Position numbers and translations under genes: made by a program
Shown: positions 1 to 41,135 of the stretch, piece by piece
How the letters are laid out: each line of letters starts with the position of its first letter
Numbering within the stretch: position 1 is the first letter of the stretch
Notes under the pieces: model-generated
What the model was told of the DNA's origin: nothing
Seen by the model: only the letters and a program-made list of their open reading frames with translations
Databases searched by the model: none
Source of the DNA: a virus
Lineage: Duplodnaviria > Heunggongvirae > Uroviricota > Caudoviricetes
IMG/VR virus record: IMGVR_UViG_2909246061_000001
Span: 1 to 41,135 of that record
DNA: 41,135 nucleotides
Reading direction: 5' to 3' (one strand)

Positions 1-483
1 ATGTTAGTTAGTAAAAGCAACGGATTTAACGCTAGCGCAGTTTTGGGTAGTGGAAGTTATAATGAAAATAAATCTTCTAAACACATGGAGCTACTAGCTC
101 ATAGTATTTTAAAATTAATTTGTAAGGAAGCTGCATCAGAGACGTATCGCGGTGCTCTTGAAACTTTACAAAAAATGATGTCTGAATGTATATATCAAGA
201 AGGCAACGCCTTTGTCATTATGGGAGCTGGAGAACAATTAAAACGTATTAAATATGAAGTTGGTGAAAATAACTTAAAGGTATTCAACGTACACTTTAAT
301 AATAATCACGAGTTAGTTAGTTCTGGTGAGCCTGACGTAATATGTTTAAGCAAGCAGGTCTGGGAAAATCTTCTCATTAAACTAAAGCTGGAAAACAATG
401 AAAATGTGTTTTCTAAAACTAAAAAATTATCGAATAAAAATAATGCCGATCAGTTTTTTGAATGCGCTAAAAGAAATGAATAG
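1..483 (+). CDS. hypothetical AT-rich protein; start at window edge uncertain; in the same frame as 583..1374 and separated from it only by one TAG
   Basis: ORF track; low GC; frame 1 stays open from 484 to the ATG at 583, so this may be the 5' part of one disrupted gene. Confidence 0.3.
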   Translation: MLVSKSNGFNASAVLGSGSYNENKSSKHMELLAHSILKLICKEAASETYRGALETLQKMMSECIYQEGNAFVIMGAGEQLKRIKYEVGENNLKVFNVHFNNNHELVSSGEPDVICLSKQVWENLLIKLKLENNENVFSKTKKLSNKNNADQFFECAKRNE

Positions 484-582
484 AACCTTTTCGATAATAT
501 AAGAAAAAGTGATTTTCATGTTGGTTTACTTAAGCCAAGTAGTACGCGTAGTGTTATTTTAGAAACGCCGCCAAATGTCTGT

Positions 583-1374
583 ATGGAATCACGTAATTCA
601 TATGAAAACAAAATAGATGAGATTTCATCTTTGTCAGAGTCAAAGGAACACCCCATAGATATTCAAGAAAAAAAAGATGCGTTTGTGAATGAGTTCAAGG
701 GGGTATTATTTGATAAAAATACAAGGTCTTCAGAGCTTCTGTTTAATTTTTATGAGTGTTGCTATAAGTTTTTACCAAGAGCTCAGCCTCAAGATAAAAT
801 CGATAGCTATAATTCAGCACTGCAAGCTTTTTCCATTTTTTGTTCATCTACGTTGACACATAATAATATAGGCTTTGATTTCAAATTATTTCCTGAAGTC
901 AAGCTGTCTGGAGAACATCTTGAAACGGTATTCAAATACAAAAATGGCGATGATGTCCGGGAGATAGCCAAAATTAACATTACTCTCCAAAAAGAAGAGG
1001 GTGGTTTATATAATTTACGTGGATTGGATTTTAAGGGGTGCTTCTTTTCTGGACAGAACTTCAGTAACTATGATATTCAATATGTGAACTGGGGAACGTC
1101 ATTGTTTGATGTTGATACTCCGTGTATTTTTAATACGCCTGCTTACAACAAGAGTAATGAAAAATCATTAAAACCTGTGAGCGAAAACGGTTTAAGTGGA
1201 GTATTGACTGATCGTAATAATAAAATAAAACTCATCACGGGCGTGGCACCATTCGATGATATTTTATTTATGGATGATGACTTTGATGATAGTTCCTCTG
1301 AGGATGATCCCGTTGAGAATAGTCCTGTTGTGACTAGTCCCGTTGTATCAAGTTCTAAAAGCAGTTTTCAATGA
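583..1374 (+). CDS. hypothetical protein with pentapeptide-repeat-like segment (NLRGLDFKGCFFSGQNFSNYD) and acidic Ser/Pro-rich C-terminus; possibly effector-like
   Basis: ORF track; AT-rich composition; no recognisable RBS upstream, consistent with being a continuation of 1..483. Confidence 0.35.
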   Translation: MESRNSYENKIDEISSLSESKEHPIDIQEKKDAFVNEFKGVLFDKNTRSSELLFNFYECCYKFLPRAQPQDKIDSYNSALQAFSIFCSSTLTHNNIGFDFKLFPEVKLSGEHLETVFKYKNGDDVREIAKINITLQKEEGGLYNLRGLDFKGCFFSGQNFSNYDIQYVNWGTSLFDVDTPCIFNTPAYNKSNEKSLKPVSENGLSGVLTDRNNKIKLITGVAPFDDILFMDDDFDDSSSEDDPVENSPVVTSPVVSSSKSSFQ

Positions 1375-1468
1375 TTAATAAATGGCAATTTTTACAAAGA
1401 GATAATAACGTAGATTGAAACAATATGTATTATTGATTGAGTAAACGGGATTATTCTTCACACTACAT

Positions 1469-1543
1469 CCATTTTAGTGTCACTACCAAAGAAAAAGGGG
1501 CTACGTTTTCATGTAACCCCTTGATTTATTTGGTGGGCTGGCA
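1469..1543 (-). repeat. degenerate copy of the ssrA 3' flank: terminator hairpin plus about 13 nt resembling the tmRNA 3' end
   Basis: 1469..1543 aligns with 40013..40086 with a few mismatches (ccattttNNNNNcactaccaaagaaaaaggggctacgYtttcaYgtaaccccttgatttatttggtgg), then diverges. Confidence 0.6.
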
Positions 1544-1721
1544 GTGACTGAATTGGTGCTGTAATTGGTTGAAATATTTCATCTAATGTCTGGTTCAACT
1601 TTCCTTAGCTGCCTGAAAGTTTTTTGATCTTACCCAGCAATAACAGCGTTACGGTGCACCACGCCTGACTGAAGAACTGCGTGCTCAGGGTTACCACTTC
1701 AACGTAAAACCGTGGCAGGAG

Positions 1722-1900
1722 GTCCGGACTGAAAAAACTGGTCAGGACATCATCGGCAGGGAACGCACTGCTAGTCTGTAAACTGAACCGACTGGGGCGC
1801 AGTATGTGGCATCTTGTCGTGCTGTTGGAGGAGCTGTGCGAACGTGGTATTAACTTTCGTGCTCTGGCCCAATCTATATTTGCCCAACAATGGGGGGACG
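1722..1900 (+). pseudogene. internal fragment of a Pin/Hin-family DNA invertase gene, truncated at its 3' side by IS1
   Basis: translation [51 protein letters not shown] matches the intact invertase at 31610..32176 (LKKLLRTLSAGDTLVVWKLDRLGRSMRHLVTLIEELRQRGVNFRSLTDSI); N-terminal catalytic region absent; frame runs into the IS1 end at 1901. Confidence 0.55.
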
Positions 1901-1955
1901 GGTGATGCTGCCAACTTACTGATTTAGTGTATGATGGTGTTTTTGAGGTGCTCCA

Positions 1956-2231
1956 GTGGCTTCTGTTTATATCAGCTGTCCCTCCTGTTCAGCTACTGAC
2001 GGGGTGGTGCGTAACGGTAAAAGTACTGCCGGACATCAGCGCTATCTCTGCTCTCACTGCCGTAAAACATGGCAACTGCAGTTCACTTACACCGCTTCTC
2101 AACCCGGTACGCACCAGAAAATCATTGATATGGCCATGAATGGCGTTGGATGCCGGGCAACCGCCCGCATTATGGGCGTTGGCCTCAACACGATTTTCCG
2201 CCATTTAAAAAACTCAGGCCGCAGTCGGTAA
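1956..2231 (+). CDS. insA: IS1 transposition regulator InsA
   Basis: 91-aa zinc-finger protein [40 protein letters not shown] typical of IS1 InsA. Confidence 0.85.
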
Positions 2232-2653
2232 CCTCGCGCATACAGCCGGGCAGTGACGTCATCGTCTGCGCGGAAATGGACGAACAGTGGGGCTATGTCG
2301 GGGCTAAATCGCGCCAGCGCTGGCTGTTTTACGCGTATGACAGGCTCCGGAAGACGGTTGTTGCGCACGTATTCGGTGAACGCACTATGGCGACGCTGGG
2401 GCGTCTTATGAGCCTGCTGTCACCCTTTGACGTGGTGATATGGATGACGGATGGCTGGCCGCTGTATGAATCCCGCCTGAAGGGAAAGCTGCACGTAATC
2501 AGCAAGCGATATACGCAGCGAATTGAGCGGCATAACCTGAATCTGAGGCAGCACCTGGCACGGCTGGGACGGAAGTCGCTGTCGTTCTCAAAATCGGTGG
2601 AGCTGCATGACAAAGTCATCGGGCATTATCTGAACATAAAACACTATCAATAA
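2150..2653 (+). CDS. insB: IS1 InsB reading frame (expressed as InsAB' transposase by -1 frameshift at the tttaaaaaac motif near 2203..2212)
   Basis: ORF with canonical IS1 InsB sequence (…[29 protein letters not shown]…); A6C slippery run present. Confidence 0.8.
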
Positions 2654-3913
2654 GTTGGGACCATTACCCATTGGGGCATATTTATACTCGTCTATATGAC
2701 AGTTACTTTTTAAAATTTCACCCTTAAAATCCTCAATTATCTCTGAGTAAAATGATCTTAGTGCTTCATTTATTTTGAGATAGCTGTAATCATGTTCTGG
2801 CTTATAACCAATCAAAGTATATGCTCTTAAAAGACCACCAAATCGGGTTCTATAAACAGAAGATGAAGGGCCTGTATCATCTTCATCAATGATAAAGCCT
2901 GATAGTTTTCCATTAGATTCTAATTTTTGTTTTAGTTTTTCTAATAGATCTTCATTAGTCAAATGAATGGATCGGAGCTGAATTATTTCTTGAGCTTTAT
3001 TGTATTTTTTCTTTGAAATAATAGGTTTATATGCCTTGTCACATCTAACCCATTCATGTTTGGGGTTTTTTACAAGCCTACTTTTTAATTTAGATGAGGT
3101 TTTGTTATATATGTTGTTTCCAATATATTTTTCATTTGTCAAAATTTGATGTATTTTTGCACGAGTCCATAATGTTCCATTTTCTGCAGGTATGTTCTGT
3201 TCATTTAATCTCTCAGCAATAATGAATTCTGGGACGTTATTATCTATAAAGAGATCATATATTCTATTTACAATTTTTATTTCATTTTTTGGTCCCGGAA
3301 TTAATATTACCCTATCTGTTTGAATACTCTTTCTTTTGCGGAAACTCAATATTTCTTTAGCTATGCCATTTTCGTCTACTAAAAGACGTCTCAGCCCATA
3401 ACCAGCCATACCGCCTTGATGATAACCAAGCTTTATTAAATTTACTTGCCCTATAAATACCTTATCAGATAGATTCCTGCTGTGATATGCAGCACTAGAT
3501 CTTTTTATATTCAGTATAACAGAGGACTCTAAAGGGAAATCTTTAGTGGGTATAGGTTCGGAACAATATATAAGATCTACACCATTTCTCTCAAATAGAA
3601 AGGAATAATATGCCGCTTCATCACTATTTTGAAAACGACCAAAACGGCTCACATCATAAAATAATACAGCCTGTATATCTATTTTCTTTTGTTCTACATC
3701 GCTAAGTAACTGCTGCAAAGAATGCCTGCCTACGATACTGACTCCGCTCTTACCTGCATCATCGTAGGTATAAGCGATTTCCATATTGTTCTTTTCAGCA
3801 TAATCTTTGATATATTCGGACTGATTATGTAAAGAATATTGCTGATGGTCGGTAGACATCCTCAAGTACTGCGCGACCCTAACTCTATGATTTTTGTCAT
3901 TTTCGCTAGCCAT
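2588..3913 (-). CDS. large serine recombinase (resolvase-type catalytic domain plus recombinase domain); 3' end interrupted by IS1, so the last 27 codons are IS1-derived and the protein is probably non-functional
   Basis: N-terminal YLRMSTDHQ serine-recombinase motif; AT-rich; ORF crosses the IS1 right end at 2668. Confidence 0.6.
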
Positions 3914-4195
3914 GCACGAAACCTCATGGATGATTCAATACAATGTAGTGGATAAAATTGATCAAATTTCAACCGAATTCAACTGTTTTATCATTGATTA
4001 GAGCGAATTTGGTAGATCTTCGAGGTGTATGATAATCGAGAAGAGATGTGAATTATTTAGCTGATATGACCGACAGCTTTCGTTATGTGGACTCAATGTC
4101 CCCATTTGTAAATGGCTATGCTTAGTCCACATAGGTTAATGGTGTGATTATTAATTCTTTAACTAAATCAAGATAGTTAATCCATCATGGGAGAG

Positions 4196-5425
4196 TTATG
4201 CGGCAATAACTTTGCATTTTTGAGACGAAACATAGTCACTCCACCATTGCATGAGAACCACCCGTTCAGTGAGATACTCTGCACGATTGTAGGCTGCAAT
4301 TATTTCATCTTTCTTCGAGTGGGCAAGGGCGGCTTCTAAGACATCAGTCCTAAACTTGCCAGACTCCTCAGCAGCCGTTCTAGCAATGGATCGCATACCG
4401 TGAGCTACAAGCTCACCTCCGAAACCCATACGGATTATGGCCGCATTAGCTGTTTGTTCATGCATGTGATTGAGTGGAGCTTTGATACTGGGGAACACCC
4501 ACTCTCTATGCCCGCTGATGACTTTCATTAAATCCAAAACTCGCAAAGCTTCTTTGCTCAGTGGAACTTTGTGAGGCTTCTTCATTTTCATAAACTCCGC
4601 CGGGATGTTCCACATGCCAGTTTCAATATCAATATCTGACCATCTTGTGCGAACAGCTTCACCTGGGCGAACCCATGTGAGAAGTTGCCACTCAATCAGT
4701 AGCCTTGTTTCCAAACGGATAGAAGCATTGTTTAGAGCAACCAAGAAGCGAGGGAGTTCGGAAGGGGGTAATGCTGGCATATTCTGTTTTTTTGGCTTGC
4801 TGAACCGTTGCCCCAGGTTGTCTGCCGGGTTGAATTCTATGAGTTCTTCTGTTGCTGCATAGCGGAAAATTTCATTCAGGCGGGATATGATGCGGCGAAG
4901 TGTTTCAAGGACACCTCGTTTTTCTATGGGTTCTAAATGCTGTTTAAGCATTTTAGGGCGAATCTCCTTAATTGGGGTATCACCCAATGTGGAAAAGATA
5001 TTTCTCTCTAGGCTTCGCCAGATGTCGTTAGCATGATCTTGGGAGATGCCTGACGTTTTGACTTTCTCATCAAGCCACTTCTTGGCTACTGCTTGAAATG
5101 TATGTTCCGTGGCATCTTTCAGTGCATTGGCTTTTTGGTTGTTATGAACTTGGGGGTCTATACCATTTGTAAGCAACGACAAGTATTCATCACGTAAAGC
5201 TCGTGCCTTCGCAAGTGTAAGGTGAGGATAGGTTCCTAAGCTCACCTTAGTTCGCTTTTTGGTCACAGGCACTGCATATCTGAAATACCAATTTTTCTTC
5301 CCTCCCTTCGCCAGGGGAGCGATTCGCAACAGCAAACCATCGCCGTCAAAAAGGTTAACCTCTTTTTCGGCAGGTTTGGTGCTTTTGATTTCAGTGTCAG
5401 TGAGCTTCTTAGCGATTTTGGCCAT
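4196..5425 (-). CDS. tyrosine integrase, P4/CP4-57 IntA family
   Basis: N-terminus MAKIAKKLTDTEIKSTKP…DGDGLLLRI…WYFRY typical of P4-type integrases; C-terminal catalytic domain with …HGMRSIARTAAEESG… and YNRAEYLTER; probable ATG at 5425 (the track ORF extends to 5506); lies directly beside an ssrA 3'-end copy, as intA does beside ssrA in CP4-57. Confidence 0.85.
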   Translation of the reverse strand: MAKIAKKLTDTEIKSTKPAEKEVNLFDGDGLLLRIAPLAKGGKKNWYFRYAVPVTKKRTKVSLGTYPHLTLAKARALRDEYLSLLTNGIDPQVHNNQKANALKDATEHTFQAVAKKWLDEKVKTSGISQDHANDIWRSLERNIFSTLGDTPIKEIRPKMLKQHLEPIEKRGVLETLRRIISRLNEIFRYAATEELIEFNPADNLGQRFSKPKKQNMPALPPSELPRFLVALNNASIRLETRLLIEWQLLTWVRPGEAVRTRWSDIDIETGMWNIPAEFMKMKKPHKVPLSKEALRVLDLMKVISGHREWVFPSIKAPLNHMHEQTANAAIIRMGFGGELVAHGMRSIARTAAEESGKFRTDVLEAALAHSKKDEIIAAYNRAEYLTERVVLMQWWSDYVSSQKCKVIAA

Positions 5426-5522
5426 GTTTGGGACCCTCGATTTTAGGACCCATCTTCGTGGGTCCCATTCAGGGTGCCATAACTCGTAGTTCTCAGCAAT
5501 TCTCACTAGACTACAATAGACG

Positions 5523-5768: not shown

Positions 5769-7289
5769 TTATTCAGGCTTTAATTTATTGATAATAGAAT
5801 CTACCATTTTAATGCCTGCCTCATTGACTATGACTGAATTGACTACTCTATCAAAATAGTCCTCTATATGGTGGGAAAATAGGAAAGCAGCACTTGATGG
5901 TTTTTTGTTCTTTTCAACTGCAGATTGCAAGACTTCATGAGGCGGAATTTTAAACCTTTTGCATGATGCAATGAGATATTCAAACTCTTCAAATGATAGA
6001 CAAAAAATATTCTCTGTAGGGATATGATAGTTATGTTTAAACTTGTCATATATCTTATTCATCTCATCTTTAGCATAAGTATTAGCTAGGATACTACCAT
6101 TGCCTAAGAAAAGGTTTTTATATGTAATGCAAATGATATATGAGTTAGCCCTGAATGGAGCTATTATTCGCTCATTAGAGTATATTTCTCGATTAACTTC
6201 GTGAGATTGTTCGATTGCTTTTAATACCGATTTCTTTATTTTTCCTGCAATATCCTCAGGGCGTAATGTTACCATGCCTTTTTGGTGTATCTCAACGCCT
6301 TTAGCATCAATGAAAATATTTGCCTCAGTATGTGGAATGAAATAATCAACTACTTTATTATCTTTAGGTAGTCGTTCTTTAAGGTATTTTTCGTTATGAA
6401 AATCAATTTCGCTTTCTTTTAGTATTAATTCCAGTGCATTTTCAAATACATTTCCAAAGCTATCCATGAACTTCTCGGCATCAGTTCTTCTTAAAAGATC
6501 ATATATGAACGTCTGTATGCTTGTTGAAGTCAGTTGTGTGTGTATCTGAAAATACTCTGAACCTTTTTTTATTAATGGTTTTTCAAGAAAAGGTGATGAT
6601 GAGTAGTATTCAAGCAAAGGTTTATCATAGGTTTTTGATTTGCAAAATGTAGATAGTTCATTGTAATTTATTGATATTGCATCAAGAAATTTCTCAATGG
6701 TATTTCTAGGAATGATGTCAAATAATATAGTAAATGTATCTACATTCATTTTTCTCACGGGATGCTCTTCTGTTATGTGAGTTATTAATATGTAAGATAG
6801 CTTAAGAAAGTCTTCGATAGATACATTCGTGATAGTAAAAAAACTTTTCTTTATTTTATGGTTTTTTTCAAGTTCTGAAAATAGAAAGACTTGTCTGCTA
6901 ATTGTGTTTAGAGCGTCAATTTTCTGGTAGATTCCTTGTTGGTATAGATTATTTCTAATGAAGAAATGCATGCCATTCTTCCTCTCAAGACCGATAGGAA
7001 TAATGTTCAAGGTTTCATAAGTTTTTTGGAAGAGTTTTATTGCTTGATTTTTATCGAGGATTTTGAATTTTTTATTCTTGCCAGTTACTGACGCAGACCA
7101 CTTTAGACATAAATTAACAATCCAAGGCATGTGTCGTAACATGTGGATATTATCTTCAAATTTTTGTAAGTTATATTGCATACAGAATTCGATAAATAAA
7201 TCAGGGGAATAACCTTGGATTTCTGAACGAATAGCATCCATTCTTAACTTTGCAACCGCATCAGATTGAATATCTAATTTTTGAATCAC
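5769..7289 (-). CDS. hypothetical 506-aa protein; AT-rich cargo gene between the prophage integrase and the left att
   Basis: long ORF with GTG start and GGAGA RBS 13 bp after the int stop; very low GC against the phage backbone; I recognise no fold; possible PD-(D/E)xK-like signature VVDYF…IFIDAKG. Confidence 0.6.
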   Translation of the reverse strand: MIQKLDIQSDAVAKLRMDAIRSEIQGYSPDLFIEFCMQYNLQKFEDNIHMLRHMPWIVNLCLKWSASVTGKNKKFKILDKNQAIKLFQKTYETLNIIPIGLERKNGMHFFIRNNLYQQGIYQKIDALNTISRQVFLFSELEKNHKIKKSFFTITNVSIEDFLKLSYILITHITEEHPVRKMNVDTFTILFDIIPRNTIEKFLDAISINYNELSTFCKSKTYDKPLLEYYSSSPFLEKPLIKKGSEYFQIHTQLTSTSIQTFIYDLLRRTDAEKFMDSFGNVFENALELILKESEIDFHNEKYLKERLPKDNKVVDYFIPHTEANIFIDAKGVEIHQKGMVTLRPEDIAGKIKKSVLKAIEQSHEVNREIYSNERIIAPFRANSYIICITYKNLFLGNGSILANTYAKDEMNKIYDKFKHNYHIPTENIFCLSFEEFEYLIASCKRFKIPPHEVLQSAVEKNKKPSSAAFLFSHHIEDYFDRVVNSVIVNEAGIKMVDSIINKLKPE

Positions 7290-7301: not shown

Positions 7302-8315
7302 CTACAAATTATAAAGAGGATTTTTAGTCACCGCGTCTTCAAGGTGATCGGGCGAAAAGTGGGCGTAAATCATGGTCATTTTTATATCGGCATGACCCAA
7401 AATATCACGCAGTACCAGTATGTTTCCGCCGTTCATCATAAAGTGACTGGCGAATGTATGGCGAAGCACGTGGGTACATTGGCCCTCCGGTAGGTCAATA
7501 CCGGCCCGCTTTACTGCCCGCTCAAAGGCTTTTCTGCATGGCGTGAATAACTTTCCTCTGTTTTTGGGGAGTTCATCATACAGATCCTGAGATATCGGCA
7601 CAGTACGGTTTTTCTTGCCTTTTGTTTTTGTATAAGTAATTCGGTATTTCGATATTTGATGGCCCTGCAGATTTTCGGCTTCACTCCACCGTGCGCCAGT
7701 AGCCAGACATATTTTTGCAATCATTAGTAAGCTAGGGCTTTGAGATTCAGCACATGCCGCCAACAGGCGCTTGATTTCGTCCGTGGAAAGAAAAGCCAGC
7801 TCACCTTCGGCAATTTTGAAGGTCGGAAGTCCTGCCAGCGGGTTTGGTGCTGACCAGTGTCCTAGTTTTTTTAATGTACCGAACACAGATGATAGATTGC
7901 GCTGTTCAAGGTTTACCGTGCGGGGCTTAACGGGCGACATCAGCGTGCCATCTTCATTTCGCACTTCACCTTTTAGCCGTGCTTCGCGGTATTTCGTAAA
8001 GTCACCGGCAGTCAGCTCTGAAGCGATGGGATCGCCCAGACCATTACAGATAATTCCAAGTTTCGCCATGAGTCGCTTGGGGTCTGCGAGTGTTTGACCA
8101 TACAGGGAATACCACAGCTCAATTAATTCTGATAGGTGTCGCCGATCTTCCTTTTCTCCCAGCCAAGGTTTCTTGTTTACCTCGTCCATGGTGAAATTCT
8201 CAAACGCAATGGCTTCGCCTTTCGTCGCAAATTGTTTGCGTACGCGTTTGCCATCTCGCCCGTTTGGGTAGCATTCACATAACCACTTTCCGTTCGGCTG
8301 TTTTCTGATGGTCAT
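7302..8315 (-). CDS. int: P2/186-type tyrosine integrase
   Basis: 337 aa, same length as P2 Int; C-terminal motifs ARWSEA…HVLRHTFASHFMMNGGNILVLRDILGHADIKMTMIYAHF. Confidence 0.9.
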   Translation of the reverse strand: MTIRKQPNGKWLCECYPNGRDGKRVRKQFATKGEAIAFENFTMDEVNKKPWLGEKEDRRHLSELIELWYSLYGQTLADPKRLMAKLGIICNGLGDPIASELTAGDFTKYREARLKGEVRNEDGTLMSPVKPRTVNLEQRNLSSVFGTLKKLGHWSAPNPLAGLPTFKIAEGELAFLSTDEIKRLLAACAESQSPSLLMIAKICLATGARWSEAENLQGHQISKYRITYTKTKGKKNRTVPISQDLYDELPKNRGKLFTPCRKAFERAVKRAGIDLPEGQCTHVLRHTFASHFMMNGGNILVLRDILGHADIKMTMIYAHFSPDHLEDAVTKNPLYNL

Positions 8316-10900: not shown

Positions 10901-11754
10901 GCACCATCCTGAAATGGGCGGGAAATAAAACCGCCATTATGTCCGAACTGAAAAAACACCTTCCTGCTGGCCCGCGACTGGTTGAACCTTTCGCGGGTTC
11001 CTGTGCTGTGATGATGGAGACGGATTACCCCAGCTATCTGGTTGCGGATATTAATCCTGATTTAATCAACCTCTATAAAAAGGTTGCCGCTGATTGTGAA
11101 TCGTTTATATCTCGCGCCAGAGTTTTATTTGAGATCGCAAACAGGGAGGTGGCTTATTACAACATAAGGCAGGAGTTTAATTACTCCACTGAAATTACTG
11201 ATTTCATGAAAGCGGTATATTTCCTGTATCTCAATCGTCACGGTTACCGTGGTTTATGTCGCTATAACAAGAGCGGGCATTTCAACATTCCCTACGGTAA
11301 TTATAAAAATCCGTATTTCCCTGAAAAAGAAATTCGCGCATTTGCAGAAAAAGCCCAGCGGGCAACGTTTATCTGCGCCAGCTTTGATGAAACGCTGGCG
11401 ATGTTGAAGGCGGGGGATGTGGTGTATTGCGATCCGCCGTATGACGGCACGTTTTCCGGTTATCACACTGACGGCTTCACTGAAGATGACCAGTATCACC
11501 TGGCATCCGTTCTTGAACATCGGTCATCAGAAGGACATCCGGTCATTGTTTCTAACAGTGACACATCCCTGATCCGTTCGCTGTATCGCAATTTTACTCA
11601 CCACTACATCAAGGCAAAACGCAACATCGGTGTGGCAGCTGGAGAGGGTAAATCAGCAACAGAAATCATTGCTGTTTCCGGGCCGCGCTGCTGGGTGGGA
11701 TTTGATTATTCGCGTGGCGTGGACAGTTCTGCCGTGTACGGAGTACGTGCATGA
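10897..11754 (+). CDS. dam: DNA adenine methyltransferase (Dam-like, orphan)
   Basis: N-terminal ILKWAGNK…EPFAGSCAV AdoMet-binding motif and DPPY catalytic motif; no partner endonuclease nearby. Confidence 0.85.
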
Positions 11755-14317: not shown

Positions 14318-14506
14318 ATGCAGGACTATTTTTTGGAGTCTTTGAAGCTCCAGCGCATTGATTTTTTTCTTAAGCTTGTAGCGGCTAGTGAGTGTAGTGA
14401 TGAAGAGAAGGGGCTGGCTCTGCAGTGGGTTTCTGAATTGACTGATGAACTCATGGCAAAAATCAGAACCCACGAATACAACCGCTCAATGGATGTCATC
14501 AGCTGA
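14318..14506 (+). CDS. small SOS-regulated protein, possible Tum-like antirepressor
   Basis: 62-aa ORF directly downstream of the LexA box; functional assignment is by position only. Confidence 0.4.
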   Translation: MQDYFLESLKLQRIDFFLKLVAASECSDEEKGLALQWVSELTDELMAKIRTHEYNRSMDVIS

Positions 14507-14516
14507 GGTGACCTTT

Positions 14517-14750
14517 ATGCGCATTGAAATAATGATCGATAAAGAGCAGAAGATTAGCCAGTCTACCCTGGACGCCCTTGAATCCGAGCTTTACCGCAAT
14601 CTGCGCCCCCTGTATCCCAAAATGGTAATTCGCATCCGCAAAGGTAGCTCTAACGGTGTGGAACTGACCGGACTGCAACTGGACGAAGAAAGAAAACAAG
14701 TGATGAAGATTATGCAGAAGGTGTGGGAAGACGACAGCTGGCTGCATTAA
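14517..14750 (+). CDS. DinI-family protein
   Basis: MRIEIMIDKEQKISQSTLDALESEL…KVWEDDSWL resembles E. coli DinI (MRIEVTIAK…); track ORF 14445..14750 trimmed to the internal ATG at 14517. Confidence 0.7.
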   Translation: MRIEIMIDKEQKISQSTLDALESELYRNLRPLYPKMVIRIRKGSSNGVELTGLQLDEERKQVMKIMQKVWEDDSWLH

Positions 14751-14909
14751 GAAAAGTTGCTGGCGTCTGAACTTGGTTCTGGCGTCAGCAAGGTTGAACA
14801 ACGAGTACAGTGAGGCGTTAGGTGTGGCGTTTATTTGATGAGTGAACGCCCGTTCTGCGACAGGTTCGGAGATTAAGGTTGAAACTACGGGCAAAATACC
14901 ATCTTTTTC

Positions 14910-15335
14910 CTACTTAATTGAGTCCAGTAACAAGTTACAGTTACTCTCATTGTAGAGAGAACGAGCAATTAGTGTTACCTGCTTTCCATTCATTCCCGGC
15001 TTATCCCATAACACAGCTTCTTGCGACGCCACAAATTCAGCATAATCAATTATGCGTTGTTCGTGATCTGGTTCCTCATAGCCAAAGTATGAGAGCGCAT
15101 CGTTGTAAGCGTGGTAAGCTGCTTTCTGTAATATCTTGATATCGGCTGTAGGTACTTGCTCCGTGTAGCTAGGATCTAATTGTGTGCTACTGCCATAGAA
15201 TGCACATGAAAGGTAAGATATTGATTTCTGTTGAGCTTTAGTTCCTTTCTCATAGTTTTTAGCTGTTACCGCCTGAACTGGGACGCTAACAAAGCTTGCA
15301 ACCAGAATTAAAATTAATACGTAAAAGCTTTTCAT
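14910..15335 (-). CDS. small secreted protein of unknown function (141 aa, signal peptide)
   Basis: N-terminus MKSFYVLILILVASFVSVPVQA with probable cleavage after VQA; AT-rich; opposite strand to neighbours; on the A side of cos. Confidence 0.55.
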   Translation of the reverse strand: MKSFYVLILILVASFVSVPVQAVTAKNYEKGTKAQQKSISYLSCAFYGSSTQLDPSYTEQVPTADIKILQKAAYHAYNDALSYFGYEEPDHEQRIIDYAEFVASQEAVLWDKPGMNGKQVTLIARSLYNESNCNLLLDSIK

Positions 15336-15678
15336 TTTGACCTCAGCCGAAACGTTAGAGAGACTATCGAAATTTGTAAAACCCGTGGCGATTCAGTTTG
15401 AGATCCTCCCCCTTACATGATTTTTAATCAAATATATGCTTTTGTAAGCATACCTGTTAACCGAATTATTTATTTTTAGAGATCTTCCGACATACTGATT
15501 ATGCCCGCTGAGGAGTTCACCTTGCGTAAGGTCCGATTCGCTTTACTCGTCTGTGCATGTCTATGCTGCATGAGATTGCATGATCGTTTGAGGATCGTTT
15601 TTGCTAAGGCCCGCCAGAACTGGCGGGCTTTTGCGTAGATCATGCACCTGCATGAAAACCACTACATAAAGCGGGCAG

Positions 15679-15697
15679 GCGTGGCGGGGATACGAGC
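15679..15697. other. putative cos site (cohesive-end region) of the P2-like phage
   Basis: ggcgtggcggggatacgag matches the first 12 nt of the 186 cos (GGCGTGGCGGGG…) and resembles P2 cos GGCGAGGCGGGGAAAGCAC. Confidence 0.4.
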
Positions 15698-15763
15698 GCG
15701 CGCTTATTACTTTGATAGTACTCGGGTTATAATATGGATGACTATCTATCTCGGAGAATGTAC

Positions 15764-17416
15764 ATGTCATTAGACTATATTAAAGAACAGTTGTCAGACT
15801 TTATTTCATCTGCAGAACCTGAGGTAATGGCTATTCAGGGTGAGTGGGGGATTGGGAAAACCTATACTTGGAATGCTTTCTTAAAGGAAAATAAAAATAA
15901 GATTGCATTTAATAGATATAGTTACGTCTCTCTTTTTGGTGTTAATTCATTGGACGCATTAAAATACTCCATCTTTGAAAATACAATTACGAAAGATTTC
16001 ATTGGAAACAAACCTAATTTAAAAACAGCAACACAAAATGCAAAGGGGCTTCTTGAATCCTGCACTAGAAAGACCGCTCGTGTGTTAAAAGATACACCTT
16101 TTTTGAAAAATTTCACTACGACACTTGAGTCAATGTCATTTATGTCAATTACTAATGTTATTGTAGTCATAGATGACTTAGAAAGACGTGGTAAAAATTT
16201 AGAAGTGAAAGATGTCTTAGGGTTGGTTTCTTTATTGAAAGAACAAAAAAATTGTAAGGTGGTTCTTTTACTTAATAACGGGACAAGTGGTATGGATGAC
16301 TACTCCACTTATAAAGAAAAGGTTATTGATAGAGAGATTACCTATAATCCTACTCCAGAAGAATGTGCAGTTATAGCATATAAAAATAATTCTGATGTTC
16401 ATAAATTATTAAGCAAATACTCCATTTCCCTGGGTATTAAGAATATTAGGATACTGAAAAAAATAGAGCGGTTTTTGCTAGCCTTGTTACCTGGCATTAA
16501 CGTTAATTTTGAAAAAATTGCAAATGAAGTCGCACACTCCTTAACTTTGTATTGTTGGAGTCATTACGCATTTACTCCAGATGGAGATGTACCATCATTG
16601 GAGTATATTAGAAATATGAGAAATATCTATATGCGTGATGAAAAAGAGGATGGAAAAGAAAAAAAATGGCTTAATACTTTGCTTATATATGATTATAAAA
16701 AAACAAACGAACTTGATGAAGTCCTTATAGACATGGTAAAGCATGGATATATTGATATGAACAATTTCCAAAGGCAAGTAAGTCTAAGGAATGATGAACT
16801 TATCCGTGATAGTAAGCGAGGTTCACTGTTTGAAGCATGGAAGCTTTTCTATAATTCATTTGAAGATAACCGAAATCAGGTTATTGATAATCTATATCAA
16901 GCGGTGGTTGGTGGGATAGAGTATGTAACTCCAAGTGACTTGGATAGTGTTGTCGGACTGTATAGAGATTTAGGTGAAAATATTCAAGCAAGTGAATTAA
17001 TAAGTAAATTTATTAATTACGGCAATGATGCTCTTAAGGAATATGTTCAATCTATTTACATGAATGTTCATCCTATAAAAGATGCTGAGTTAAAGTCAAA
17101 AATCCAAGATTATTCTACTACTTTAAATCTGGATGGTTCTATAAAGGATGTTCTAATAAAATTATCAAGTCAGAATGGTTGGTCTGATAGGCACGAGGAA
17201 ATATTGGATGCTGCCTCAGAGGATGACTACTATGATTTATTTAAAAAAGTCATTCTTGATGGTGGTGATTCAATAATAGCTACTGCTCTTAAGTTTGGTG
17301 GGTATAGCAATGGTTCAGAAAGAATGAAACGCATCGGAGAAAAAGCGAGAAATGCTTTGATAAGAATTGGAAATGAGTCGAGCATTAATAAAATACGTGT
17401 TAGACGGTATTTGTAA
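15764..17416 (+). CDS. KAP-family P-loop NTPase-like protein (551 aa from the ATG at 15764); candidate anti-phage cargo
   Basis: Walker A GEWGIGKT (15839..15862) and Walker B VIVVIDDLER (about 16160..16186) in KAP-type spacing; GGAG RBS before ATG 15764; perfect TATAAT at 15728..15733; AT-rich; followed by a terminator hairpin. Confidence 0.7.
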   Translation: MSLDYIKEQLSDFISSAEPEVMAIQGEWGIGKTYTWNAFLKENKNKIAFNRYSYVSLFGVNSLDALKYSIFENTITKDFIGNKPNLKTATQNAKGLLESCTRKTARVLKDTPFLKNFTTTLESMSFMSITNVIVVIDDLERRGKNLEVKDVLGLVSLLKEQKNCKVVLLLNNGTSGMDDYSTYKEKVIDREITYNPTPEECAVIAYKNNSDVHKLLSKYSISLGIKNIRILKKIERFLLALLPGINVNFEKIANEVAHSLTLYCWSHYAFTPDGDVPSLEYIRNMRNIYMRDEKEDGKEKKWLNTLLIYDYKKTNELDEVLIDMVKHGYIDMNNFQRQVSLRNDELIRDSKRGSLFEAWKLFYNSFEDNRNQVIDNLYQAVVGGIEYVTPSDLDSVVGLYRDLGENIQASELISKFINYGNDALKEYVQSIYMNVHPIKDAELKSKIQDYSTTLNLDGSIKDVLIKLSSQNGWSDRHEEILDAASEDDYYDLFKKVILDGGDSIIATALKFGGYSNGSERMKRIGEKARNALIRIGNESSINKIRVRRYL

Positions 17417-28095: not shown

Positions 28096-28693
28096 TCTGC
28101 TGCCACCGGGTTCAACTTCACTGGAGCGCCGACTGGCGCAAACCTGTAGCGGGATTTCTGATCTGCAGGTGCCGCTGCGTGACTTGTGGAATCCGGCTAC
28201 CTGTCCGGTCAGCTTCCTACCTTATCTCGCCTGGGCGTTCTCTGTGGATCGCTGGGACGAGGGCTGGACAGAAAGCGTCAAACGCCAGGTAGTGAAGGAT
28301 GCTTTTTATATTCATCAGCATAAAGGAACCACCAGTGCCGTGCGGCGGGTGGTGGAACCGTTCGGATTCCTGATCCGCATTATTGAGTGGTGGCAGACCG
28401 GAGAAACACCGGGCACGTTTCGCCTGGATATCGGCGTGCAGGACCAGGGCATCACTGAAGATACCTATCTGGAACTTGAGCGGCTGATAAGCGATGCCAA
28501 ACCATGTAGCCGTCACATGATCGGCATGTCCATCAATCTGCAGACCAGCGGTCCGCATTGGGTGGGGGCCGCCAGCTATCTTGGCGAAGAAATCACGATC
28601 TATCCGTATATCAACGAAACAATTATTTCTGGCGGCACCGCGCATGAAGGCGGGGCGGTCCATGTTATTGACACAATGAGAGTGAATCCATGA
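28088..28693 (+). CDS. I: baseplate/tail-fibre attachment protein I (P2 gpI)
   Basis: position and size. Confidence 0.8.
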   Translation: MNSLLPPGSTSLERRLAQTCSGISDLQVPLRDLWNPATCPVSFLPYLAWAFSVDRWDEGWTESVKRQVVKDAFYIHQHKGTTSAVRRVVEPFGFLIRIIEWWQTGETPGTFRLDIGVQDQGITEDTYLELERLISDAKPCSRHMIGMSINLQTSGPHWVGAASYLGEEITIYPYINETIISGGTAHEGGAVHVIDTMRVNP

Positions 28694-30093
28694 GCACAAA
28701 ATTTTATACCCTGCTGACGGATATTGGCGCGGCGAAACTTGCCAGCGCCGCCGCGCTCGGTGTGCCGCTAAAAATTACCCATATGGCGGTCGGCGATGGC
28801 GGCGGAGTATTGCCAACGCCAGACTCAAAGCAGACTGCACTGGTAAATGAGAAACGCCGGGCTGCGCTGAATATGCTCTATATCGACCCGCAGAACAGCA
28901 GCCAGATTATTGCCGAACAGGTGATCCCTGAAAACGAGGGCGGTTGGTGGATACGTGAAGTGGGCTTGTTTGATGAGTCCGGGGCATTGATTGCCGTGGG
29001 CAACTGCCCGGAAAGCTATAAGCCGCAACTGGCTGAAGGTAGCGGGCGCACTCAGACCGTGCGCATGGTGCTGATTACCAGCAGCACGGACAATATCACC
29101 CTGAAAATCGACCCTGCCGTAGTGCTGGCAACCCGCAAGTATGTGGATGACAAGGCACTGGAGCTGAAGGTGTACGCGGATGATCAGATGGCAAAACATC
29201 TTGCCGCACCGGACCCGCATTCACAGTATGCACCCAAAGAAAGTCCGACGTTTACCGGGGCACCCAAAGCGCCAACGCCAGCCGCAGGGAATAACACCAC
29301 GCAGATTGCGACCACCGCGTTTGTTCAGGCGGCTCTGACGGCTCTTATTAATGGTGCGCCAGCCACGCTGGACACGCTGAAAGAAATAGCCGCAGCCATT
29401 AACAATGATCCGAAATTCAGTACCACCATTAACAATGCGTTGGCACTGAAAGCGCCGCTGTCGAGTCCGGCACTCACCGGAACGCCAACCGCACCTACTG
29501 CGGCACAGTCGGTCAACAATACACAGATTGCCACCACGGCATTTGTGAAATCGGCGATTGCGGCAATGGTGGGTTCTGCACCTGCGGCACTGGATACACT
29601 GAATGAACTGGCTGCGGCGCTGGGGAATGACCCGAACTTTGCCACGACAATGCTTAATGCGCTGGCAGGTAAACAACCGCTGGACAATACGCTGACTAAT
29701 TTGAGTGGAAAGGATGTAGCTGGTCTTCTCGCATACCTTGGTTTGGGAGAAGGTTCGGCATTACCCGTTGGTGTGCCTGTTCCGTGGCCCTCAGCCACTC
29801 CGCCAACAGGCTGGCTGAAATGCAATGGTGCGGCTTTTTCTGCTGAAGAATACCCGGAACTGGCAAAGGCTTACCAGACCAATAAATTGCCTGATTTACG
29901 CGGTGAATTTATTCGTGGCTGGGATGACGGTCGCGGGATTGATACTGGTCGCGCTTTGCTTAATTGGCAGCCACACACAATTTTGGACCATGCACACTAT
30001 ATGGAATTATGGACAGGGGACGGACTCGCCGCAGGAAGTGCACGGGAAGGAGTAAACCCAGGAATACTGGCTACATACGGTGACGGGGAATAG
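28690..30093 (+). CDS. H: tail fibre protein H; variable C-terminal part lies in an invertible segment and is frame-disrupted in this orientation
   Basis: N-terminal P2 H-like region; stop at 30091..30093; the canonical tail-fibre C-terminus [16 protein letters not shown] is encoded in the -1 frame (30084..30245) and ends with an ATGA overlap on the tfa start. Confidence 0.8.
   Translation: MSTKFYTLLTDIGAAKLASAAALGVPLKITHMAVGDGGGVLPTPDSKQTALVNEKRRAALNMLYIDPQNSSQIIAEQVIPENEGGWWIREVGLFDESGALIAVGNCPESYKPQLAEGSGRTQTVRMVLITSSTDNITLKIDPAVVLATRKYVDDKALELKVYADDQMAKHLAAPDPHSQYAPKESPTFTGAPKAPTPAAGNNTTQIATTAFVQAALTALINGAPATLDTLKEIAAAINNDPKFSTTINNALALKAPLSSPALTGTPTAPTAAQSVNNTQIATTAFVKSAIAAMVGSAPAALDTLNELAAALGNDPNFATTMLNALAGKQPLDNTLTNLSGKDVAGLLAYLGLGEGSALPVGVPVPWPSATPPTGWLKCNGAAFSAEEYPELAKAYQTNKLPDLRGEFIRGWDDGRGIDTGRALLNWQPHTILDHAHYMELWTGDGLAAGSAREGVNPGILATYGDGE
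29726..29751. repeat. left crossover site of the tail-fibre inversion system (hix/gix-like, 26 bp)
   Basis: ttctcgcataccttggtttgggagaa; its right half matches the reverse complement of the site at 31529..31554 (ttggtttgggagaa against ttggttttggagaa); inside H at codons LAYLGLGEG. Confidence 0.5.
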
Positions 30094-30241
30094 TTAAAAC
30101 GGACGAACCCGGTCTTAAGGTGCCTTCCTCACTACGAGCTCTTAGCTCTCGTAGTGTTAAACGTTATGGTGAAATTAGTGGAAATGTAGGTACAGAAACT
30201 CGTCCTCGTAACATCGCTTTTAATTATATTGTGAGGGCCGC

Positions 30242-30847
30242 ATGATGAATAAAGCTGTATTAAATAGCGAACTCATTGCCATAAAAGCGGGAGACATTAT
30301 CATTTATAATTATGATGGTGAAACGCGGGAATATATTTCTACATCAACTGAATATCTCGCTGTCGGCGTCGGTATCCCGGCATGTTCCTGTTTGGATGCA
30401 CCAGGTATACATAAAGCTGGTTATGCAATCTGTCGCTCTGTAGATTTAAATTCATGGGAATATGTGCCAGACCATCGCGGTGAAGTTGTCTATAGTACCG
30501 AAACGGGAGATACCAGAGAAATCACAGTTCCGGGTGATTACCCTGAAAATACAACCACTATCGCCCCATTAACGCCATACGATAAATGGGATGGTGAGAA
30601 ATGGGTGACCGATACTGAGGCACAGCATAGCGCCGCAGTAGAAGCGGCAGAAGCACAGCGCCAGTCACTGATTGATGCAGCAATGGCTTCCATTAGTCTG
30701 ATTCAGCTGAAATTACAGGCCGGGCGGAAACTGACGCAGGCAGAAACAACCCGGCTTAACGCTGTGCTGGATTACATTGACGCGGTGACGGCAACAGATC
30801 CCAGCACCGCGCCGGATGTCATCTGGCCTGAACTGCCGGAGGCGTAG
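30242..30847 (+). CDS. tail fibre assembly protein (Tfa, P2 gpG-like)
   Basis: C-terminal …[14 protein letters not shown] typical of Tfa; start overlaps the restored end of H. Confidence 0.8.
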
Positions 30848-31247
30848 GCCATTCAATATCGGGTGCTGTTGAAGTATCAACACGCATCAGCAGCACTCGG
30901 TATTTCTTCCATTCGGTGAGAGTTGAAGTTTCTTCATCAGTTGCGATATCAGCATCAACAGCATCCTGACGCCAGGATATTTCACTGTCAGCTTTTTCCC
31001 GTAATTGGGATTTTTTAACTTCAGCAATAGCTATTAATTCCTTTTGGGTCGGCTGAGGAATATCTATCAGTGCTGGTTTTCCATTCAGTGTTCCAATCTG
31101 TTTTCCTGGTGGAATATCCATAAATAACTTTTTATGTTCTTCCTCACTGACTATTACACCATCATCAGGCCACAGACCTGATGCCTCAAATTTTTCTTTC
31201 TCCGATATGGGGAAAAAGCCATTTGCTTTAGCGCTCCATACGTACAT
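30819..31247 (-). CDS. alternative tail fibre assembly protein (Tfa') in the invertible segment
   Basis: opposite strand; C-terminal …[14 protein letters not shown] typical of Tfa. Confidence 0.75.
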
Positions 31248-31372
31248 ATCAATACCCCACCGCTATAATGTCCACATTAAATCCCCGGGACCTGCCTGCC
31301 AGATGCTGGCCCCTGTTAATGATTTTGTTTGATGAACAACCGCCACATTTGCTGGCGATTGTGTTTCAGTTG

Positions 31373-31541
31373 TTACAGTACCGATATCATTCCAGTTAAT
31401 TGAGATGGAATAGTTCGTTGTTGTAAACGACCGGGGAAAGTTATGTGTCTTACATTGGTGCCAACAGGAAATCCAAGATAAACACGCTGAATTATCATTC
31501 CTCCAGGTAACATAACCCAGTTAGCACCTTCTCCAAAACCA
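31373..31541 (-). other. alternative tail-fibre C-terminal segment (Hv'), fused to H after inversion; short and possibly degenerate
   Basis: minus-strand frame encodes …INVGFGEGANW…, sharing the G(L/F)GEG junction with H at the crossover site. Confidence 0.45.
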
Positions 31542-31554
31542 ACGTTTATAAAAA
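31529..31554. repeat. right crossover site of the tail-fibre inversion system (hix/gix-like, 26 bp)
   Basis: ttctccaaaaccaacgtttataaaaa resembles hixL TTCTTGAAAACCAAGGTTTTTGATAA; inverted relative to the 29726 site; just upstream of the invertase gene. Confidence 0.5.
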
Positions 31555-31609
31555 TGCAGAGATAACGGCTAACTGGCATCATCCCCGGTTTTTATTCAGG
31601 GGATTGATC

Positions 31610-32176
31610 ATGCTTATTGGCTATGTACGCGTGTCAACAAATGACCAGAACACCGATTTGCAACGTAATGCACTGAACTGCGCGGGATGTGAGCGGATTT
31701 TTGAGGACAAAATCAGTGGCACTAAGTCCGACAGACCGGGACTGAAAAAACTGCTCAGGACATTATCGGCAGGTGACACTCTGGTTGTCTGGAAGCTGGA
31801 CAGGTTGGGGCGCAGTATGCGGCATCTCGTTACGCTGATAGAAGAGCTGCGCCAGCGTGGCGTGAATTTCCGAAGCCTGACTGACAGTATTGATACCAGT
31901 ACCCCAATGGGCCGTTTCTTTTTTCATGTCATGGGTGCCTTGGCTGAAATGGAACGCGAACTGATAGTTGAACGTACCAGGGCGGGGATTGCTGCAGCTC
32001 GCGACAAAGGCAGAGTAGGTGGACGCCGTCCTAAGTTGACCACCGAACAGTGGGCACAGATTGGACGTTTACTAGAGGCCGGAGAATCAAGACAGCGTAT
32101 TGCACTGATTTTTGATGTGGGCGTTTCTACCATTTATAGAAAATTTCCGGCAAATAAGAGCAGTGAATCCCCCTGA
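31610..32176 (+). CDS. site-specific DNA invertase, Hin/Gin/Cin/Pin family serine recombinase
   Basis: MLIGYVRVSTNDQNTDLQRNAL…VVWKLDRLGRSMRHL…C-terminal HTH; nearly identical N-terminus to e14 Pin. Confidence 0.9.
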   Translation: MLIGYVRVSTNDQNTDLQRNALNCAGCERIFEDKISGTKSDRPGLKKLLRTLSAGDTLVVWKLDRLGRSMRHLVTLIEELRQRGVNFRSLTDSIDTSTPMGRFFFHVMGALAEMERELIVERTRAGIAAARDKGRVGGRRPKLTTEQWAQIGRLLEAGESRQRIALIFDVGVSTIYRKFPANKSSESP

Positions 32177-39451: not shown

Positions 39452-39475
39452 ACCTGCTACGGCAGGTTTTTATTC
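39452..39475 (+). terminator. terminator hairpin after ogr (bidirectional; overlaps the stop of the convergent 160-aa gene)
   Basis: acctgc-tacg-gcaggt followed by ttttatt. Confidence 0.45.
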
Positions 39476-39952
39476 ATCTGGGATCTCACCCGTTTCAAGA
39501 AAATGTATAAAGCCAGGCTCATCTATGATGATTGTGCCTTTCATCCTGGCTGCCGATACTTTTGATGGGCCTGCATTGTAACCGCAACAGAGCATCTGAA
39601 GGCTTTGGGTTACAGAGGTTCTTACCGTTAATCCTTGTTCATTCGCCTTATCAACCAATCTTTCTTTATCTGCTTTCTTAAATCCGGTAAAACACACATC
39701 GAATGTATTTTTTTTCGGACCTGACTGCTTAGTGAGATGTGAGTAGTTTTCGGGGAGGAATGACGCGCATTCCTGAATGGCTTGTTCTGGTGAATCGTAC
39801 TGTTTAAGAATGCGGTCTTTTCGGAAGGTTTTTATTCGAACGGTGTTCTTACAAATGCCCTGTATATGATTTTCGCTATAACTGATGCTCTGTATAGAGT
39901 GAACACCGATACGACCATTTGCATTGATGTAAACAAAGTGAAGTTCTTCCAT
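39470..39952 (-). CDS. hypothetical 160-aa protein with C-terminal BRCT-like domain and N-terminal WYL-like segment; AT-rich cargo between ogr and the right att
   Basis: ATG at 39952 with AAGAGG RBS; C-terminal CFTGF…GLTV…GYNAGPSKVSAARMKGTIIIDE resembles BRCT domains; N-terminal VRIKTFRKDRI resembles WYL motifs; low GC. Confidence 0.55.
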   Translation of the reverse strand: MEELHFVYINANGRIGVHSIQSISYSENHIQGICKNTVRIKTFRKDRILKQYDSPEQAIQECASFLPENYSHLTKQSGPKKNTFDVCFTGFKKADKERLVDKANEQGLTVRTSVTQSLQMLCCGYNAGPSKVSAARMKGTIIIDEPGFIHFLETGEIPDE

Positions 39953-40071: not shown

Positions 40072-40120
40072 TATTTGGTGGAGCTGGCGGGAGTTGAACC
40101 CGCGTCCGAAATTCCTACAT
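40072..40120. repeat. 49-bp direct repeat at the prophage right junction, overlapping the ssrA 3' end
   Basis: identical to 5588..5636. Confidence 0.85.
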
Positions 40121-40438
40121 CCTCGGTACTACATGCTTAGTCAGTCTTTACATTCGCTTGCCAGCTGCGGACGGACACGCCACTAACAAACTAGCCTGAT
40201 TAAGTTTTAACGCTTCAACCCCAGGCAGGGCTTCCACGCGATCTCTTTTGGGTTTGACCTCTCTTGATCCCCGTCCTAAGAGCGGAGGCTAGGGAGAGAG
40301 GGCTCTAAGCAGGTTATTAAGCTGCTAAAGCGTAGTTTTCGTCGTTTGCGACTATTTTTTGCGGCTTTTTACGAGGCCAACCGCCCCTCGGCATGCACCT
40401 TGGGTTTCGCAAATCCCGTCGAATCCAGAATCAGCCCC
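40076..40438 (-). ncRNA. ssrA: tmRNA (SsrA), 363 nt, intact
   Basis: reverse complement reads GGGGCTGATTCTGGATTCGACGGGATTTGCGAAACCCAAGGTGCATGCC…GGACGCGGGTTCAACTCCCGCCAGCTCCACCA, matching E. coli tmRNA end to end. Confidence 0.95.
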
Positions 40439-40652: not shown

Positions 40653-41135
40653 TTAACGGTGGGCGTTTTTCATGATACGCGCTTTATCCACCTGCCATTC
40701 GCGCTCTTTGATATCTGAACGTTTATCGTGCTGTTTCTTACCTTTGGCGACGCCGATTTTCACTTTGCACCAGGCATTTTTCCAGTACAGGGAGAGCGCC
40801 ACTACGGTATAGCCTTCTCGATTGACGCGACCGTACAATGAGTCCAGTTCGCGCTGGTTGAGAAGTAACTTGCGGGTACGGGTAGGATCGCACACCACAT
40901 GCGTGGAGGCCACTGCCATTGGCGTGATGTTTGCGCCAAACAGGAACGCTTCTCCGTCACGCAGAAGGACATAGCTGTCGCTGATATTGGCTTTTCCTGC
41001 GCGCAGGGATTTAACTTCCCAGCCTTGCAGGGCAAGTCCCGCTTCGAACTCTTCTTCGATAAAGTATTCGTGACGGGCGCGCTTGTTAAGCGCGATGGTC
41101 GCTGAACCAGGTTTATGTGCTTTTTTCTTCGTCAT
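40653..41135 (-). CDS. smpB: SsrA-binding protein SmpB
   Basis: 160-aa protein [48 protein letters not shown]… essentially identical to E. coli SmpB; upstream of ssrA on the same strand. Confidence 0.95.

Follow-up and report, generated by a model that had tools for sequence, protein, structure and literature searches.

In the sequence as given, the tail-fibre gene H of this P2-like E. coli prophage is interrupted by the loss of one G from a homopolymer, and neither orientation of the invertible cassette in which that run lies encodes a complete fibre in the deposited DNA. Three bases in all are missing from the cassette, and we infer that they were probably dropped as uncorrected consensus errors in a cassette that is multicopy or of mixed orientation, and not lost by mutation. 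All positions are those of the window, i.e. the whole stretch of 41,135 nucleotides that was analysed (IMG/VR record IMGVR_UViG_2909246061_000001).

The end of H and its run length in relatives

In the list of open reading frames, H occupies 28690..30093 on the plus strand and encodes 467 residues with the C-terminal sequence ATYGDGE. The codons at the break read GCT ACA TAC GGT GAC GGG GAA TAG, where the run of four Gs at 30085..30088 is the site of the frame break (it is five Gs long in all close relatives) and the premature TAG stop at 30091..30093 is created by the missing G. The first-pass annotation had claimed that H stops at this TAG after GDGE, which both the sequence itself and the translated ORF confirm, and that the -1 frame carries the tail-fibre C-terminus from 30084 to 30245 and overlaps the start of tfa. 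The latter also holds, in that the -1 frame of H is open from 30084 to a TGA at 30243-30245, encodes the canonical C-terminus, and has a stop codon that overlaps the tfa start at GCATGATG. Inserting one G into the run gives an H of 518 residues, and the break was thus rightly placed 51 codons before the native stop, these being the codons lost in the deposited sequence.

The -1 frame downstream of the break is genuine coding sequence and not a chance open frame, because it aligns with the C-terminal end of gp37 of T4 and because the orthologs with five Gs are intact. The restored H has an N-terminal Phage_tail_fib domain (PF12571, residues 1-150, E=1e-64) and a Collar domain (PF07484, E=6e-15). 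Its variable part, Hv, which comprises the last 169 residues, counted from the crossover site, can be aligned with the tip of gp37 that binds the receptor (PDB 2XGF) over the collar, the HxH motif (HAH in Hv vs HSH in gp37) and the terminal strand, where NIAFNYIVRLA of gp37 is matched by an 11-residue counterpart in Hv. A fibre of the P2 H type combines PF12571, the Collar domain and the ...NIAFNYIVR terminus in a single polypeptide; as read, the ORF here ends at GDGE and falls 51 residues short of this, and the restoration of one G makes the set complete, with PF12571, PF07484 and the gp37-like terminus. The resemblance of H to the T4 gp37 tip and to the collar-type C-termini of P2 H and Mu S therefore lies in PF07484, the HxH motif and the terminal ...NIAFNYIVR(A/L)A strand. 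Unlike T4 gp37, however, the Hv tip is much shorter, at ~169 residues from the crossover site, and unlike gp37, P2 H and Mu S alike, the last 51 residues including the terminal strand are out of frame as read. In the gp37 structure the chain extends as far as the tip and then doubles back, with its last residues packing into the collar. If that fold holds for H, a protein that ends at GDGE and lacks the return strand should not fold or trimerise.

The comparison with orthologous prophages that the first-pass annotation had proposed found five Gs at the exact site, in genes annotated as intact. Thousands of E. coli genomes have a match to a 701-bp query taken around the site, and the records that span the site are one base longer among the matches listed; the alignment puts this extra base of the orthologs in the G run (GACGGGGGAA vs GACGGGGAA). 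At three ortholog loci the fibre genes are annotated as intact, one of them with a 518-residue product on the same P2-type backbone. The intact G5 orthologs, 518 residues long, prove that the native H is restored by one extra G, as had been suggested. With a degenerate pattern accepting either length, G5 was found in 30/30 IMG/VR matches and 19/19 metagenome-contig matches, and among the GTDB species representatives neither the G4 nor the G5 36-mer had a match to the site. Of the 170 complete E. coli genomes in which a 70-bp probe located the site, three (504838, 95-3322 and ECONIH4) carry G4, and in each of these three the NCBI annotation calls the gene 'frameshifted'. No family of fibres ending naturally at GDGE was found among the homologues compared.

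The frequency of G4 was 0/49 in the pattern-scan matches and 0/18 in the cassette loci obtained by protein look-up, vs 3/170 in complete genomes, a difference that is not significant; the rarity of G4 in short-read data was accordingly dropped as an argument, 0/49 vs 3/170 being too small a difference. At least two haplotypes carry G4 at 30085, and for each there is a G5 sequence from which it otherwise hardly differs. Common descent of all G4 alleles was rejected, given that 504838 has its G4 on another haplotype, one that is otherwise almost the same as the G5 contig L019. The occurrence of G4 on different haplotypes implies that the change recurs and was not spread by descent.

A full-length H could in principle be made from four Gs by programmed recoding, with the ribosome or RNA polymerase slipping at the G run. 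The two frames do overlap at the homopolymer, and a programmed -1 frameshift is known from another gene of P2-like phages, the tail chaperone E/E+E'. In the relatives examined, however, H has G5 and is read in a single frame, GAC GGG GAA TAG contains no slippery heptamer of the form X XXY YYZ, four Gs are too few for transcriptional slippage, and the two breaks in the alternative variable part, described below, would each need a signal of their own. We consider the probability of recoding practically negligible, and programmed frameshifting and transcriptional slippage were both rejected on the sequence and the G5 orthologs.

The invertible tail-fibre cassette

The locus is an invertible tail-fibre switch of the Din family (the Mu G, P1 C and e14 P type) on a P2-like E. 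coli prophage. The prophage has a P2-type backbone and is integrated at ssrA. The constant N-terminal part of H (28690..29739, plus strand), which contains PF12571 and repeats, lies outside the invertible segment and is collinear with relatives of both cassette orientations. The left crossover site (TTCTCGCATACC TT GGTTTGGGAGAA) is at 29728..29754, inside H, and the right one (TTCTCCAAAACC AA CGTTTATAAAAA on the plus strand) is at 31526..31551. They contain the arms of an inverted repeat of 20 nt, 29735-29754 and 31526-31545, which are 90% complementary, so that one arm of the repeat is inside H. The half-sites, TTCTCC(C/A)AAACC around a central AA/TT, seem to resemble the Din-family consensus.

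Between the repeats, in a cassette of 1.8 kb, two variable parts with their chaperones face each other. On the plus strand, Hv, the variable C-terminal part in the selected orientation (29740..30245; collar, HxH and canonical C-terminus), is followed by tfa, the assembly chaperone paired with it (30242..30847; PF02413 Caudo_TAP, E=4e-31). As deposited, Hv is split over two frames, with 29740-30093 in the frame of H and 30084-30245 in the -1 frame, and except for the missing G it is identical to 8 other sequences. On the minus strand are tfa' (30819..31247; PF02413, E=2e-33), the chaperone paired with Hv' and an exact protein that is widespread, and Hv' itself (31250..31545), the alternative variable part with a gp53-like C-terminal domain. 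The G4 run at 30085-30088 falls within the invertible segment. Just outside it, at 31610..32176 on the plus strand, is a serine DNA invertase of the Pin/Gin/Cin/Hin type (PF00239 Resolvase, E=7e-53; PF02796 HTH_7, E=1e-15), whose orthologs are annotated pinE or recombinase family protein; the ORF tool starts it at a TTG at 31604, and homologues of 188 residues fit the ATG at 31610.

In the same P2-like prophage in L070 and L077 the cassette is inverted, with breakpoints inside the repeats, which means that inversion happens in nature. The locus thus has an adjoining serine recombinase, inverted sites, two opposed C-terminal parts each with a chaperone, and inversion in relatives. In e14 and in P2-like invertible loci, both orientations coexist in clonal E. 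coli cultures, as found by read-pair analysis (PMC4272514). The cassette is ~99% identical to the cassettes of e14-like elements annotated pinE/tfaE/stfP, and among complete E. coli genomes the best cassette match is likewise ~99%. As in Mu G/Gin, P1 C/Cin and e14 P/Pin, an invertase of ~190 residues with the Resolvase and HTH_7 domains adjoins the segment, the crossover repeats are inside the fibre gene at the junction of its constant and variable parts, and the two opposed C-terminal parts each have a Tfa of their own and are found in both orientations in nature. Unlike those systems, the cassette here sits on a P2-type backbone between G and FI, and the reading frame is broken in both of its variable parts, a feature foreign to such systems.

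Breaks in Hv' and confinement of the deletions to the cassette

The alternative variable part is broken as well. Three-frame translation, together with the C5 and G5 runs of near-identical relatives, resolves Hv' into three frames separated by two 1-base deletions. Read on the minus strand, the first break is at 31433..31436, a run of four Gs on the plus strand that is G5 in relatives, and the second is at 31283..31286, a run of four Cs on the plus strand that is C5 in relatives. When both bases are restored, Hv' matches PF21882, and its fusion to the constant part gives 447 residues, exactly the product length in relatives whose cassette is inverted. All of the G/C runs with five bases in the cassette of the relatives (n=3) thus have four here. 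The C4 at 31283 is shared by EC1515, and EC974 has C5 and the opposite orientation, these two genomes being near-identical in chromosome length and local annotation, with adjacent accessions.

Outside the cassette the window has 25 G/C runs of five or more, none of the runs of this length being inside it, and no other prophage gene is visibly interrupted; on these two grounds homopolymer under-calling throughout the window was rejected. Comparisons with individual relatives lead to the same three positions. Over 29738-31590, L061 (an ENA metagenome scaffold) and L064 (a Logan assembly of a public run) have 0 mismatches to the window and exactly these three gaps. The near-identical prophage L075 (GCA_037066405.1) has 10 substitutions over 6,429 bp aligned, L080 has 46 over 9,420 bp, and L078 and L079 have about 220 over 14,655 bp, in every case with only these three gaps, and to the right of the cassette L081-L084 have 43-45 substitutions over 7.4 kb and no gaps. 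If three hits had fallen at random among the 28 runs, the chance of exactly the three in the cassette being hit is 1 in 3,276, or 1 in 120 if the count is restricted to the 14.6 kb aligned, which contain ten runs.

The exact tfa protein is on record only on 8 short contigs. Ten substitutions in tfa/tfa' comprise 5 synonymous and 5 non-synonymous changes, a split that carries no information. Short-read contigs break just outside the crossover repeats, as is expected if the cassette is multicopy or heterogeneous in orientation. The window also contains an IS1, a multicopy element that is 100% identical to those of other genomes; a clean IS1 speaks against a blanket error in repeats, though as a second-repeat test of polishing it is weak to the point of having no power, since it contains no G/C run of five or more.

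Origin of the missing bases

The first-pass annotation had listed mutation, homopolymer sequencing error and slipped-strand variation as causes of the break in H and had not ranked them. They can now be put in order: an error of sequencing or assembly ranks highest, a real mutation comes next, and slipped-strand switching is last. Residual errors of long-read assemblies mostly concern homopolymer length and persist in repeats after short-read polishing (PMC8812927). What is seen here has the same form, with single-base homopolymer deletions in a repeated or heterogeneous cassette, with clean unique sequence, and with the deletions absent from the short contigs of public short-read and metagenome assemblies. 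The likeness to errors of long-read and hybrid assemblies is one of signature and does not demonstrate the cause. The changes are in homopolymer length only, they fall in a repeated or heterogeneous region, and assemblies of near-identical DNA from accurate reads do not have them. A consensus error would account at once for the restriction to deletions and to homopolymers, for the private nature of the changes and for their recurrence in other assemblies, and it would also explain their confinement if the cassette escaped polishing.

The best explanation of these observations is as follows. The serine invertase flips the 1.8-kb cassette with Hv and Hv', each followed by its own chaperone, and the locus is a host-range switch. 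Such a cassette is hard to polish, because many genomes have several near-identical copies of it and because both orientations exist in one culture. Most likely the three bases are missing from the assembly and not from the organism: a long-read or hybrid consensus would have retained homopolymer under-calls, which would have survived only in the cassette. The real H would in that case be an intact protein of 518 residues and the real alternative product one of 447 residues.

It can also be proposed that one base was truly lost from each of three G/C 5-mers by recent inactivating mutations. We regard this as unlikely, and make the same judgement of its variant, in which the prophage is in early decay or has imported the cassette by recombination from a decayed e14-like copy. 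The sequence as given does read in this way, homopolymer -1 deletions are typical spontaneous frameshifts and indeed also the commonest real frameshift mutations, the nearest relatives of the cassette include e14-like cryptic elements, and frameshifted cassettes are annotated in several other genomes, with the C4 of EC1515 as a shared allele. Under real mutation, however, three indels must have arisen independently in 1.85 kb that show zero substitutions against L061 and L064, while the remaining 12.8 kb of the alignment gained no indel and no gene was broken at the 25 other runs, and the choice of exactly the cassette three out of the 28 runs would be left to the chance calculated above. A long-decayed donor should have contributed substitutions too, and there is no general decay, the rest of the prophage being free of visibly interrupted genes. 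In addition, exact look-up in the gene-position index returned no record of the frameshift-specific ORFs (467, 69 and 41 residues), which were seen in no other assembly. By the homopolymer-indel and substitution rates of E. coli in mutation-accumulation work, the three-indel pattern is improbable by orders of magnitude, even for a mismatch-repair mutator.

A third possibility would be slipped-strand phase variation, with the G5/C5 tracts as reversible on/off switches superimposed on the inversion and the off state having been assembled. The change from G5 to G4 does recur at the same site, on different haplotypes and prophage backbones, and the near-identical EC974 and EC1515 do differ at the C tract. 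Against this, five bases make a far shorter tract than those of known contingency loci, which usually have at least 7 or 8 bases (at contingency loci typically >=7, compared with 4 here and 5 in relatives), only deletions are seen and never G6, and the deletions of other assemblies also fall in G3, G4, T5 and dinucleotide positions across the cassette in a noise-like manner. Moreover, all of the 49 pattern matches in IMG/VR and metagenomes have G5. Slipped-strand variation is therefore a very improbable source of the three deletions. The broader proposition, that the G5/C5 tracts of Pin-type cassettes are hypermutable switches by which separate E. coli lineages have repeatedly lost one of the two tips or both, has in our estimation hardly any likelihood of being true; were it so, an off state would be added to the two-way inversion, and selection might favour this in lysogens or in cryptic elements with reused fibre genes.

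The switch itself is standard. The break, whether an artefact of assembly or an ordinary frameshift in a homopolymer, is of a well-known kind, and the finding carries little biological weight. If the deletions were real, an otherwise intact P2-like prophage would give only fibre-less, non-infectious (non-adsorbing) particles in either orientation, and it would be an ordinary example of early prophage inactivation. If they are an artefact, as the preferred reading of a consensus error holds, homopolymer errors persist in long-read and hybrid assemblies where a fibre cassette is invertible or multicopy, and 'frameshifted' tail-fibre pseudogenes in such cassettes should not be taken as prophage decay unless the reads have been checked.

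Invertible tail-fibre cassettes seem, in fact, to be recurrent sites of uncorrected homopolymer error in complete genomes, the pattern being found in at least four other E. coli genomes. The cassettes of these assemblies, whose sequencing technology we assumed from their dates, were judged against near-identical short contigs. That of 95-3322 has four 1-base deletions (in a G4, a G5 and two G3 runs) and a 1-base insertion in ~1.57 kb, that of ECONIH4 has three deletions (G3, G5 and T5) vs three mismatches in 2.1 kb, that of HB-Coli0 has at least six deletions, with Hv, tfa and Hv' all annotated as broken, and that of 504838 has one deletion. The fibre pseudogenes that NCBI PGAP annotates as 'phage tail protein, frameshifted' in 504838, 95-3322, ECONIH4 and HB-Coli0 are like the H described here in the change from G5 to G4 at the same codon, and differ from it in being on other haplotypes and backbones, two of them in the unselected orientation. 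In APEC37 the cassette occurs twice in one chromosome, at ~2.405 Mb and ~2.451 Mb.

Deletions in the alternative fibre part and in other cassettes

The alternative tail-fibre C-terminal part Hv', a gp53-like segment on the minus strand at 31250-31545, is interrupted by two more 1-base deletions, which lie in C5/G5 runs at window positions 31283-31286 and 31433-31436, and in the sequence as given a full fibre is encoded in neither orientation of the cassette. When the missing bases of Hv' are put back, the fused product is 447 aa, the same as in relatives. Multiple single-base homopolymer deletions were likewise found in the Pin-type cassettes of other complete E. coli assemblies, namely 95-3322 (L007), ECONIH4 (L008), HB-Coli0 (L009), 504838 (L006) and EC1515 (L005), on comparison with near-identical short-read contigs, and the genes hit in those assemblies carry a "frameshifted" annotation. 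Invertible or multicopy cassettes thus look like a recurrent weak spot of assembly. In one IMG/VR contig (L032), the 36-mer spanning the G run of Hv is present twice, at 11183-11218 and 11697-11732, on the same strand and with a spacing of 514 bp, and this pairing suggests that the Hv part is tandemly duplicated there.

The apparent prophage insertion site and its flanks

The right end of the window carries, both on the minus strand, the tmRNA gene ssrA (40076-40438; tag ANDENYALAA) and smpB (40656-41135), and the ssrA locus appears to be the insertion site of the P2-like prophage, whose int gene lies at 7302-8315 and whose gene D ends at 39156. Relatives with an identical tape-measure protein adjoin ybjL instead of ssrA, and the similarity of the window to these stops at 39154. 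Between the end of the late genes and ssrA lies a 160-aa minus-strand ORF (39473-39952), for which Pfam gave no match and PADLOC a weak one, to PDC-S48 (E=2e-7), confined to the C-terminal part. Directly adjoining the integrase, a 506-aa minus-strand ORF (5772-7289) matched neither Pfam nor PADLOC models. Further left, within positions 1-5506, an IS1 copy spans about 1900-2670, and the genes there encode DUF5507 and DUF5508 (ypjC-like), a large serine recombinase of 441 aa and, at 4199-5506, a second tyrosine integrase, of the P4 type. This gene content suggests that an island lies in tandem at the same locus.

The variable cargo region

Window positions 14445-17416, lying between dinI/gpA and the portal gene, form a region of variable cargo. 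It encodes a KAP-family P-loop NTPase of 560 aa (PF07693; PADLOC candidate PDC-S49, E=2e-25) and also contains an ORF of 141 aa without a family match. Among relatives, the cargo in this position differs, examples being a reverse transcriptase, SIR2, AAA_21 and KAP NTPases other than this one.
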